Source: an uncultured Methanosarcinales archaeon (GTDB lineage: Archaea > Nanobdellota > Nanobdellia > Woesearchaeales > GW2011-AR9). From it: 53,172 nt of DNA. The notes under the pieces are model-generated. The model was not told the origin of the DNA. It made no database searches and saw only the letters and a program-made list of their open reading frames with translations. The translations under genes were made by a program, and so were the position numbers. The first letter of the stretch is position 1; every line of letters begins with the position of its first letter. The stretch spans positions 1 to 53,172 of the forward strand of contig CAZRCV010000005.1 of NCBI GenBank assembly GCA_964598745.1. Reading direction: 5' to 3'. Shown here in pieces: positions 216 to 35,863 of the stretch.

Positions 216-1139
216 ATGATGCGTAAATCTATCAAAGAATGCCCGGAATGTTCTAGTCAGAATATTTATCGTAATGTCGAACGAGGTGAAACTATCTGCC
301 GGGAATGCGGATATGTGATAGAAGACCGCATGGTTGATTTCTCACAAGAGTGGCGGGACTTCGAAGATGATGACAGCGGCAGCAAGCGGCGAACTGGAGC
401 GCCATCCTCGCAAACTCAATTTGATCAAGGATTAGGTACGGAAGTTGGCACCACTTCTGATTTTTATAAACTCAGCTCCGACAAAGAAAGAGATAAATTT
501 TTTCGGTTAAGGAAGTGGAACATCAGGATCAGTACTGCTATTGAAAGAAACTTAAAGGTAGCTTTAGCGGAATTGAAACGGGTTTCTTCCTTTTTGCGTT
601 TACCACGCTCAGTAGAAGAAGAAGCTGCCAGAATTTACCGCTTAGCGGTACAGAAAGGCTTAGTTAGGGGAAGATCCATGGAATCAGTAATTGCAGGAGC
701 TTTATATGCAGCCTGCAGGCGCCATGAAGTGCCACGGACATTAGATGAGATGGGAGAAGCCTCTGGCATTGAAAAAAAAGAAATTGGCCGGACTTACCGC
801 TTTGTAACCAGAGAATTAGAAATCAGCATTCGGCCAAGCAATCCAGCTGATTATATTCCTCGGTTTGCTTCAGCCTTAAAGCTAAGCCCAGAGACTCAGT
901 CCAAGTCAGTGGAAATTTTAGAAATGGCCCGGGATATTGAATTAACCTCAGGTAGAGGTCCAACCGGAATTGCCGCAGCAGCATTGTATGTTGCATCATT
1001 AATTCATGGAGAAAAAAGAACACAGCGTGAAGTGGCAGATGTAGCTGGTGTAACTGAAGTAACTATCAGAAATAGATATAAAGAGTTAATCAAAAAATTG
1101 AAATTAACTAAGGACGTAGAGAAGAGCAAGAAGAAATAA
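216..1139 (+). CDS. tfb: Transcription initiation factor IIB (TFB)
   Basis: N-terminal Zn ribbon CPEC...CRECG, EWR/RTGAP B-reader, two cyclin repeats (GRS, GRGPTG), C-terminal VTEVTIRNRYKEL. Confidence 0.98.
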   Translation: MMRKSIKECPECSSQNIYRNVERGETICRECGYVIEDRMVDFSQEWRDFEDDDSGSKRRTGAPSSQTQFDQGLGTEVGTTSDFYKLSSDKERDKFFRLRKWNIRISTAIERNLKVALAELKRVSSFLRLPRSVEEEAARIYRLAVQKGLVRGRSMESVIAGALYAACRRHEVPRTLDEMGEASGIEKKEIGRTYRFVTRELEISIRPSNPADYIPRFASALKLSPETQSKSVEILEMARDIELTSGRGPTGIAAAALYVASLIHGEKRTQREVADVAGVTEVTIRNRYKELIKKLKLTKDVEKSKKK

Positions 1140-1155: not shown

Positions 1156-2235
1156 CTAACTTAACAATTGATATAAGGTATAAGCTAATGAGGACGGTGT
1201 AACTAAACCCACGGAGAATGAAGCTAAGCTCAGTTTACTTTGCTGTTTGTTAAACTGTTTTATTAACTCCGCCAATTTTTTCGGGTCATGTTTAGCTAAT
1301 TCAGCATGTTCAGAAGCTAAGTCAATAATCATTTGATCTTTTACACCATGAGTAAGAAAATATTTTATTTCAGGTACATGATCCCGTCCGCCCAAGAAAT
1401 TTTTATCCATAACAGAACTAGATGCTCTAAGGAATTCTGCCATGTAAGCGGAACGCCTGTGTGTCAGGGGTGGATAACTGGGATTAGAATTTCTATCACA
1501 CAATTCTAATTCAATTGGTGTTGGCAATTTATCCCTAACAGCAATTTCTAAAGGTAAATTTATTTGACCATGGTATTTTTCCAATACCTGTTTCGGATGA
1601 TTCGGTAATTTTTCAAAAGCCACTCGTAAAGGTGTTTTTTCAAATAGGCAACTTGAACTAAGTTGGCTACGTCTACGCTTTTCTCGTAAAACATCAACAC
1701 CAACCCTTAATAAAAAATACAACATAGCTAAGGGTAATGTAGAAACTCTCACTCCCATATTAAAAGCTGTCCTGCTATTTAATAAATCCACATAGACTTT
1801 AGAAACAATGTGGTCATTCATTTCAAAATGAGAACCATATCCATTATTCAAATCATCAAGCTCAAATCGTGATCCAATACATTGCTCGATAGCCCAAGTT
1901 TGGCCTTTAGTCTTGTCAACCAACTCTTTTACGGCCGATCCATAAGCTGTTGTTGAAACACCAGTGGGATGTACTACCCCCCATAAATTATAAACCTGAT
2001 CACCAACTGCAACAGATAAGCAATGAATTTCTTCTGCAGTCCTAGGAATTGGTTTTTGCTTGGCCGCAGCCAATTCTCTATCCTTAATAATTCGCCAATC
2101 CCGACGCAATCTTCTTAAAAAACTTCTTTCGCTAGGAAATTTTAACCCACTGTCAGCATATTTCTCACGCAGTGAAGCGATATTTTCTGCAGCGATAATT
2201 TCATCCAACGGCAAGGGAGTGGCTGTTTCCATCAA
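1156..2235 (-). CDS. Hypothetical protein, probable divergent TraB/PrgY/Tiki-like family member with C-terminal hydrophobic tail
   Basis: Ordered motifs LWGVVH ... WAIEQ ... RRSAYMAEFL ... GGRDHVPEI resemble TraB GxxH / E / R..M / GxxH. Confidence 0.45.
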   Translation of the reverse strand: MMETATPLPLDEIIAAENIASLREKYADSGLKFPSERSFLRRLRRDWRIIKDRELAAAKQKPIPRTAEEIHCLSVAVGDQVYNLWGVVHPTGVSTTAYGSAVKELVDKTKGQTWAIEQCIGSRFELDDLNNGYGSHFEMNDHIVSKVYVDLLNSRTAFNMGVRVSTLPLAMLYFLLRVGVDVLREKRRRSQLSSSCLFEKTPLRVAFEKLPNHPKQVLEKYHGQINLPLEIAVRDKLPTPIELELCDRNSNPSYPPLTHRRSAYMAEFLRASSSVMDKNFLGGRDHVPEIKYFLTHGVKDQMIIDLASEHAELAKHDPKKLAELIKQFNKQQSKLSLASFSVGLVTPSSLAYTLYQLLS

Positions 2236-29347: not shown

Positions 29348-29439
29348 GGCGGCTGTCGTATAATGGTCAGTATGCAGGTCTGTGGAATTAGCTTTGCAGC
29401 AAACCTGTGGAGGGGGTTCGATTCCCCCCAGCTGCCCCA
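29348..29439 (+). tRNA. tRNA-His(GUG) with encoded G-1, encoded CCA and a 16-nt intron at 37/38 (29386-29401)
   Basis: Acceptor G-GCGGCTG/CAGCTGC-C-CCA; anticodon stem CAGGT/ACCTG; T-arm GGGGG TTCGATT CCCCC; BHB central helix CTGT/GCAG. Confidence 0.93.
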
Positions 29440-35446: not shown

Positions 35447-35529
35447 TGGTAATTTCCAAACGAATAGGTTATTTATAAAGGTTTGTGTATTGTTTAGAAT
35501 AAAATAGTTTAAGCGTATTTAATTAAAAG

Positions 35530-35671
35530 TGGACCTGCCCAGATTTGAATTCCCCAAATCCAGCTGTTGCCAGCGGGGTTTGCTGGGGATCTTCTCGATT
35601 ATGCGCTTAGCCAGCTCGTCAACGAGATGTCATTTATGGCACTTAACGTGTAGCCACTAGACCACAGGTCC
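35530..35671 (-). tRNA. tRNA-Val(GAC) with three introns: D-loop (35634-35651, 18 nt), anticodon loop (35599-35616, 18 nt) and T-arm 53/54 (35550-35582, 33 nt)
   Basis: Splicing gives the 73-nt GGACCTGTGGTCTAGTGGCTATGACATCTCGTTGACGTCGAGAAGATCCCCAGTTCAAATCTGGGCAGGTCCA; BHB motifs at the junctions. Confidence 0.85.
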
Positions 35672-35863
35672 GCTCAGGGCTAGCCGCCCGCAGTTATTTA
35701 TTAAAGTTTTGTTTCTCGTCAGATAAGGCCAAATTCAGCATAAATTTTATAAACAGCAGACTATTTTAAACTTAATTCGAGAGACGCATCGGCTTATGTT
35801 GTTAACTATGGCTTGTGCGTACTGGAGATGGGCAACAGAGCTTCTTCTCCGAGGTTTATTATC

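Follow-up and report, generated by a model that had tools for sequence, protein, structure and literature searches.

The locus at positions 35671 to 35530 on the minus strand of the analysed window, a stretch of 53,172 nucleotides of DNA, is very probably a functional gene for tRNA-Val(GAC), interrupted by three introns of the BHB type. Its host (G000, the source genome) is a groundwater DPANN-type archaeon with a genome of 1.0 Mb and 38% GC that is 99.08% complete. The parts of the gene are as follows.

35671..35530, minus strand: tRNA-Val(GAC) gene, 142 nt in four exons separated by three introns; the discriminator is A (35530), CCA not encoded
35671-35652, minus strand: exon 1, 20 nt, acceptor 5' strand, U8, D-stem 5' strand and D-loop through position 20a
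35651-35634, minus strand: intron 1, 18 nt, in the D-loop immediately 5' of A21
35633-35617, minus strand: exon 2, 17 nt, A21, D-stem 3' strand, position 26, anticodon stem 5' strand and loop positions 32-37 with GAC
35616-35599, minus strand: intron 2, 18 nt, at the canonical 37/38 site
35598-35583, minus strand: exon 3, 16 nt, position 38, anticodon stem 3' strand, variable loop and T-stem 5' strand
35582-35550, minus strand: intron 3, 33 nt, at the 53/54 site
35549-35530, minus strand: exon 4, 20 nt, T-loop UUCAAAU, T-stem 3' strand, acceptor 3' strand and A73

The exons add up to 73 nt (20+17+16+20) after removal of all three introns, and the ends of the gene, GGACCUG on the 5' side and CAGGUCC-A on the 3' side, provide a 7-bp acceptor stem and the discriminator A. 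Pairing in the spliced form is 7/7 in the acceptor stem, 3/4 in the D-stem (a U13.U22 mismatch), 5/5 in the anticodon stem and 5/5 in the T-stem, and all of these 20 pairs are Watson-Crick. The spliced form has U8, A14, G18G19, U33, G37, the T-loop UUCAAAU and A73, and the locus passes the hard filters of the intron-aware finder for the nucleotides that are conserved in class I tRNAs (U8, A14, G18 G19, U33, purine 37, G53 U54 U55 C56 A58 C61). When each of the eight splice combinations of the three candidate introns was given to ARAGORN, a 73-nt tRNA-Val(gac) was obtained solely on removing all three. With the D-loop and T-arm introns taken out, ARAGORN called Val(gac) and itself placed an 18-nt intron in the anticodon loop; with the anticodon-loop and T-arm introns taken out, it reported an unassignable tRNA; the remaining five combinations gave no call. 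The proposal of the initial annotation, that removing 18, 18 and 33 nt at these sites restores a 73-nt tRNA-Val(GAC) cloverleaf, is borne out, on the minus strand. The G+C content is 53% in the exons and 39-58% in the introns, as compared to 29% and 41% in the 200-nt flanks.

The splice motifs were scored by the pairs of the central 4-nt helix, the consecutive exon-side pairs and the consecutive intron-side pairs, with 3-nt bulges placed 3' of each central strand; the scores are (4,2,3) for the D-loop, (2,4,3) for the anticodon-loop and (4,0,3) for the T-arm intron, and all three junction pairs are BHB-like by this measure. In the D-loop intron the central helix GUGG/CCAU is paired 4/4, with bulges CU^A and AA^A (the caret marks the predicted junction). 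Central helix and bulges had been described correctly before, whereas the CAC/GUG helix, which had been taken for the outer one, is internal to the intron; the exon-side flank shows just a 2-bp out-of-register pairing, or the 3-bp D-stem in the MFE fold. At 37/38 the outer helix is the anticodon stem, the inner helix is GCU/AGC, and the bulges CG^A and AA^U are correctly spaced. The central UUGA/GCAU of this intron has 2/4 pairs (U.U and A.G mismatches), in agreement with its earlier description as relaxed, and is the weakest among the orthologs, which have 3-4/4. The T-arm motif with CCCC/GGGG had also been recognized: exon CCCC (C48-C51) pairs 4/4 with intron GGGG, the bulges are AG^C and AA^U, and the inner side forms an AAA/UUU helix plus a GCUG-GCAA-CAGC hairpin, with no adjacent outer helix (A=0), which makes it a relaxed motif. 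The 3-nt bulges and a 4/4 central helix are therefore present together in the D-loop and 53/54 introns, while 37/38 has the right spacing with 2/4 pairs. By the strict hBHBh' definition, both flanking helices are found at 37/38 only; two of the three motifs are of the relaxed kind because on the exon side 53/54 has no adjacent helix and the D-loop intron just the two out-of-register pairs. The MFE fold of the precursor holds the acceptor, D and anticodon stems together with all three intron helices, and it beats 200 of 200 shuffles (z -3.15).

The locus was compared by BLAST with 40 related genomes, which yielded colinear pieces, and orthologs were then obtained with the intron-aware finder and by direct reading. 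Their introns are distributed as follows.

G002, same genus, L005 (G002:C15) 277-515, plus strand: D-loop 22 nt, 37/38 32 nt, 53/54 87 nt, 59/60 25 nt
G053, same family, L035 (G053:C3) 1444-1632, plus strand: D-loop none, 37/38 16 nt, 53/54 74 nt, 59/60 26 nt
G009, same family: D-loop 37 nt, 37/38 29 nt, 53/54 none, 59/60 30 nt
G019, same family: D-loop none, 37/38 14 nt, 53/54 none, 59/60 23 nt
G003, other genus: D-loop 38 nt, 37/38 15 nt, 53/54 91 nt, 59/60 none
G034, another family: D-loop, 37/38 and 53/54 none, 59/60 130 nt

The orthologs carry one to four introns, at shared or other sites; these counts leave out L006 (G022), L012 (G006) and L011 (G024), whose parses are ambiguous or non-standard. 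The spliced products of the six orthologs are 73 nt long and 61-68/73 identical to the G000 gene, identity being scored with five of them (G002, G003, G009, G019 and G034) and G053 entering the stem-pair comparison. The four-intron ortholog of G002 has 3-4/4 central pairs in each motif, and its 73-nt spliced form is identical to G000 at 68/73 positions. In the same ortholog, the T-stem outer helix of the 59/60 motif is available only once the 53/54 intron is gone. No ortholog was found in G001, a genome of the same genus that is 89% complete, by BLAST or with the D-loop pattern.

The D-loop is uninterrupted in G019, G034 and G053, and the anticodon loop TTGACGT is uninterrupted in G034; such intron-free relatives read straight across the predicted junctions (D-loop GGCU-AUGAC, anticodon loop UUGACGU). 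The junctions are fixed by the relatives, since the exons are uninterrupted in some of them and introns of other lengths occupy the same sites elsewhere. Length and sequence of the introns vary among the orthologs while the splice helices are retained; the inner helices of the D-loop motif range from 1 to 13 bp and are unrelated in sequence, and the homologous 53/54 intron of G002, G003 and G053 retains the relaxed motif. Across seven spliced orthologs, 140 of 147 stem cells are paired, and the seven exceptions are the invariant U13.U22. Among the 21 stem pairs of these seven orthologs there are five compensatory double changes, two one-sided changes and 14 invariant pairs. The U13.U22 mismatch of the D-stem speaks against function, yet it is invariant in 7/7 orthologs.

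The D-loop intron was followed through 114 genomes of the family, from 58 genera, with a strict pattern consisting of the 5' half of the gene and a 12-42-nt insertion. The D-loop intron occurs at the same site in 20/114 genomes (7/58 genera) and the uninterrupted sequence, with exons 1 and 2 contiguous, in 4/114, these strict patterns covering 24 of the 114 genomes while the other 90 match neither form. Reversed-pattern controls gave 0 matches in the same 114 genomes. In the D-loop splice helix of the 21 matched strings, compared by eye, exon C16 stands opposite an intron G in 14/15 cases and U16 opposite A in 6/6, and the congeneric G000 and G002 differ by exactly this double change. The C16 and U16 states are each found in four genera, kin among them not being independent. 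The 53/54 junction was found in 4/114 genomes (3/58 genera) of the same set. An intron at the same D-loop site also interrupts the tRNA-Val(UAC) of G000, G004 and G017; in G000 this gene lies at C23:2292-2385 on the plus strand, its intron is 21 nt long, and ARAGORN miscalls the locus as tRNA-Arg(ccg).

The genome encodes both enzymes that the splicing of such a gene would call for. RtcB is matched at 568.9 bits, and there is exactly one EndA, a 197-aa ORF at C40:196-789 (L001) on the plus strand with N-terminal and catalytic C-terminal domains (PF01974 5.8e-30, PF02778 4.6e-15, TIGR00324 114.8 bits against a cutoff of 59.6). Over its full length the protein can be aligned with 1a79, the subunit of the homotetrameric M. 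jannaschii EndA (E 1.5e-34), and the catalytic Tyr, His and Lys fall in register. No beta subunit or EndA paralog was found in the genome with the protein itself and a beta-subunit model as queries. A single strong PF01974 match is present in 39/41 genomes of the order, a closed one-contig genome included, and the other two, 79% and 89% complete, have no PF01974 match. The initial annotation had expected an endonuclease of broad specificity, an expectation that the EndA found here does not bear out for any of the known types: it is an alpha subunit only, and none of the loops that mark broad specificity (CSL/L1, ASL/L2, N. equitans-type L3) is present. The alpha subunit of A. pernix has nine extra residues holding the Crenarchaea-specific loop, of which the G000 EndA has none at that place; it likewise lacks the six basic-loop residues that the N. 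equitans alpha subunit has inserted between its catalytic Tyr and His, and an ARMAN-2-type ASL insertion is absent too. In 11/11 aligned EndAs of the order, Tyr and His are exactly as far apart as in the M. jannaschii protein. The G000 EndA is hence of the M. jannaschii-like alpha type and would presumably act as a homotetramer. A Lys-rich low-complexity N-terminal tail is seen in 10 of the 11 aligned proteins, its length varying from about 0 to 75 residues among the 11.

The gene appears to be single-copy. A second Val(GAC) gene was found neither by ARAGORN -i (15 calls) nor by the Rfam tRNA model (18 matches at E<=10), and neither by the intron-aware finder nor by BLAST of the locus in this 99.08%-complete genome. 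An intron-less Val(GAC) elsewhere, named beforehand as one of two observations that together would make the gene a relic, was thus not found in that genome. When the three introns and the leader were searched for by BLAST in their own genome, no further copies came up, just chance words of 9-12 nt, and to judge by these sequences there appears to be no sign of recent intron transposition within G000. The gene is flanked by two putative signals.

35705-35695, minus strand: TATA-like box TTTAATAAATA, 24-34 nt ahead of the 5' end of the mature tRNA, putative promoter
35525..35528, minus strand: T-run TTTT, starting 2 nt past the discriminator, putative terminator

A similar A/T box lies at about -33 to -25 in eight Val(GAC)/Val(UAC) genes and in the G002 ortholog, and T-runs follow 7/8 Val(GAC)/Val(UAC) genes (not that of G034) as well as the G002 and G053 orthologs. 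In G000, a GC-rich leader of 20 nt (35672-35691, minus strand) separates the TATA-like box from the start of the mature tRNA and could form a small hairpin, GGGC-GGCUA-GCCC; the leaders of the orthologs are AT-rich.

Motif scores of this kind are to be read against a high background. The relaxed BHB criterion is met by 1.8% of the (position, length) pairs of the genome (4,315,268 of about 2.4e8), so that a single motif alone is not significant, while at this rate all three junctions would pass with a frequency of ~6e-6 before sliding by +/-1 nt. It could accordingly be argued that a GC-richer intergenic stretch has had a cloverleaf carved out of it by three arbitrary removals, a reading to which we assign a vanishingly small probability. 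In its favour, permissive BHB rules with four removable segments turned one locus into 68,490 combinations and at least about 40 ARAGORN calls, with the homologous four-intron solution among them, and two loci of a reversed-genome decoy reach 20, the raw score of the Val(GAC) locus. With the same finder and a 7/7 acceptor, however, the decoy gave 0 loci at score 21 and those 2 at score 20, as compared to 15 and 12 in the real genome, and both decoy loci are AT-rich (25-32% GC) against 53% for the Val(GAC) exons; the decoy is an imperfect one, in that reversed tRNAs retain their stems. Because permissive rules carve many artificial tRNAs from one locus, the decisive support is comparative, and it comes from the colinear orthologs in at least six other genomes with their identity after splicing, from the contiguity of the exon junctions in relatives and from the covariation.

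The same comparison bears on whether the gene still works. A decaying relic, in which cleavage has been lost at the weak motifs of 37/38 and 53/54 and GUY codons are read by, for example, tRNA-Val(UAC), would fit the 2/4 central helix at 37/38, the missing outer helix at 53/54, a sole EndA without known broad-specificity loops and the presence of the Val(UAC) gene at C23:2292-2385. We nevertheless consider it very unlikely, as evident from the 20/20 intact Watson-Crick stem pairs and the conserved nucleotides, the relaxed 53/54 motif kept in three other genomes, the compensatory stem changes, the lack of any other detected Val(GAC) gene and the retention of promoter box and T-run. For a functional gene, a narrower question is whether the middle intron sits at 38/39, leaving the loop UUGACGA, rather than at 37/38, leaving UUGACGU. 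Both placements remove 18 nt and keep a 7-nt loop, and i(39,18) is ARAGORN's own placement once the D-loop and T-arm introns are out. The 38/39 junction is nonetheless absent from the table of BHB-like pairs, in which 37/38 appears with both flanking helices, and orthologs that are uninterrupted or differently interrupted there all yield the loop TTGACGT, which renders the shifted placement highly improbable.

A processing path can be proposed on the basis of the predicted fold. A 142-nt precursor would be transcribed from the TATA-box promoter and would fold such that each pair of intron-exon boundaries is set in two 3-nt bulges, four positions apart. Exon G15-G19 would base-pair with the last intron nucleotides in the D-loop motif; at 53/54 the partners would be exon C48-C51 and the intron GGGG; and the 37/38 motif would be stacked atop the anticodon stem. 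EndA may then cleave past the second nucleotide of each bulge, and the RtcB ligase may join the four exons into the 73-nt tRNA. The D- and T-arm introns would tie up G18/G19 and the T-stem 5' strand, and the tRNA elbow would therefore form only after both have been removed.

In its unspliced form the locus receives no call from ARAGORN and no Rfam RF00005 match at the gathering cutoff or at E<=10, which confirms the earlier supposition that standard annotation would miss it. The only Rfam match near the locus, SNORA81 (E 3.9), was taken as chance. The sole tRNA found in this genome that would read GUC/GUU directly is thus missed by both ARAGORN and the Rfam tRNA model. It shares this fate with much of the tRNA set, as only six tRNA genes of this 99%-complete genome score above the Rfam cutoff, while the intron-aware finder gives at least 30 credible tRNA genes, of which 27 are interrupted and three intron-free (examples: C24:3150-3025, minus; C4:28262-28450, plus; C1:28772-28904, plus; C8:19391-19200, minus). 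At least 55 introns are distributed over those 30 genes, about 1.8 per gene. Three introns each are carried by Arg(CCU), Arg(GCG), Arg(UCU), Val(GAC) and Trp(CCA), the last with two of them in the T-arm, and Ile(GAU) and Asn(GUU) may belong here too, for a total of 5-7. Triple-intron tRNAs, described as rare in the initial annotation, are not so in this lineage, given at least five such genes in this genome alone. About 15 expected isoacceptors (for example Ala UGC, Gln, Tyr, Thr UGU, a second CAU tRNA, Pro GGG and Lys CUU) were not found by a search that allowed up to five introns, two of them in the T-arm, in ORF-free segments with a GC-rich window, and that excluded introns in positions 1-14 or 66-73 and any longer than 130 nt. 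As tRNA genes are hidden from the standard finders, claims of tRNA loss in such DPANN genomes that are based on gene counts are unsafe. A tRNA-His(GUG) at 29349-29436 on the plus strand of the window is called by both ARAGORN and Rfam; its additional nucleotides are best accounted for by a 16-nt intron, located at or beside 37/38 (BHB 4,4,1), and not by a long variable arm.

The three-intron layout is already known in archaea, and the Val(GAC) gene is not exceptional within its own genome; it adds a well-documented case to a known class, with a series of orthologs carrying 1, 2, 3 and 4 introns. Multi-intron tRNA genes of Thermoproteales (Pyrobaculum, Thermofilum, Caldivirga) were reportedly described by Sugahara in 2007/2008. 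In the available text of Yoshihisa 2014 (PMC4090602), tRNA genes with three introns are documented, as are the sites 20/21, 53/54 and 59/60, and the tRNAscan-SE 2.0 paper (PMC8450103), in its corresponding part, gives 'up to three' introns per gene and a record of 71 introns in 46 genes. According to these two sources, the Thermoproteales resemble the present archaeon in having up to three BHB introns at 37/38 and non-canonical sites, strict as well as relaxed BHB motifs, and genes that default finders miss. They differ in being hyperthermophilic Crenarchaeota with an (alpha-beta)2 EndA that bears the Crenarchaea-specific loop, whereas here a 1-Mb DPANN-type genome encodes a loop-less alpha subunit.

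[quoted passage not shown] There too, nearly all tRNA genes are interrupted, by about two introns each, many of them in the D-arm, and standard annotation misses many of these genes (PMC11291895; bioRxiv 10.64898/2026.10.13.758758). The Asgard archaea, however, belong to another superphylum and possess an (alpha-beta)2 EndA with an L1 loop (Kaneta 2018, PMC5829648, in its available text). DPANN is not covered in the available text of those Asgard surveys (PMC11291895, bioRxiv 10.64898/2026.10.13.758758), and such genes are not described in the accessible portions of the literature that pairs Woesearchaeota with tRNA introns, Kaneta 2018 (PMC5829648) included. ARMAN-2 (Ca. Micrarchaeum) is likewise a DPANN host with relaxed T-arm BHB motifs and use of the 59/60 site (Hirata 2012, PMC3488258, as far as its available text goes), a site that is also used by the Val(GAC) orthologs of G002, G009, G019, G034 and G053. 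Its three-unit epsilon2 EndA, as set out in the same text, owes its broad specificity to the ASL loop (K161), in contrast to the 197-aa alpha subunit without ASL in G000. Outside the archaea, the tRNA-Ile(UAU) of Cyanidioschyzon merolae has three BHB introns, in the D-arm, at 37/38 and in the T-loop, and its RT-PCR intermediates indicate that the outer introns leave before that at 37/38 (Soma 2013, PMC3728597, available part). That gene differs in being nuclear and eukaryotic, with a eukaryotic enzyme and a measured order of removal, whereas for G000 we infer the order.

The combination of these introns with this EndA bears on the question of how relaxed motifs are cut. In the available text of Hirata 2012 (PMC3488258), enzymes without a specificity loop cut relaxed motifs poorly in assays, and there and in the corresponding part of Kaneta 2018 (PMC5829648) the cleavage of relaxed motifs is attributed to the loops. 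The latter text further reports that DPANN alpha4 enzymes with an L3 loop go with more disrupted tRNA genes, and that the (alpha-beta)2 EndA with the L1 loop extends across the TACK and Asgard superphyla. A loop-less single-subunit EndA facing relaxed motifs runs counter to the link between loops and disrupted genes as published in those texts (PMC5829648, PMC3488258). It is conceivable, and we put it forward tentatively as somewhat less than an even prospect, that the order splices nearly all of its tRNAs, relaxed D- and T-arm motifs such as the 53/54 motif without an outer helix included, with a single loop-less alpha EndA and no beta subunit. If so, this would be a fourth, undescribed route to broad specificity, for which the Lys-rich N-terminal tail is a candidate, or else the loops would not be needed at all for relaxed motifs.

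Two smaller observations concern the T- and D-arms of relatives. A GC-rich module (ggcaggcat...gccc-like) is common to their long T-arm introns and is absent from the 33-nt 53/54 intron of G000; it is found at the following places.

L004, 1456-1672: GC-rich T-arm intron module
L005, 384-470: GC-rich T-arm intron module
L035, about 1514-1587: GC-rich T-arm intron module
L022, 1502-1704: GC-rich T-arm intron module

Locus L011 (G024:C6, about 1520-1415, minus strand), read by eye, has A for G18 in the D-loop and G for U55 in the T-loop, which may reflect either a co-change of the tertiary pair or a decaying copy; the central helix of its D-loop intron still pairs, as GUAG/CUGC.
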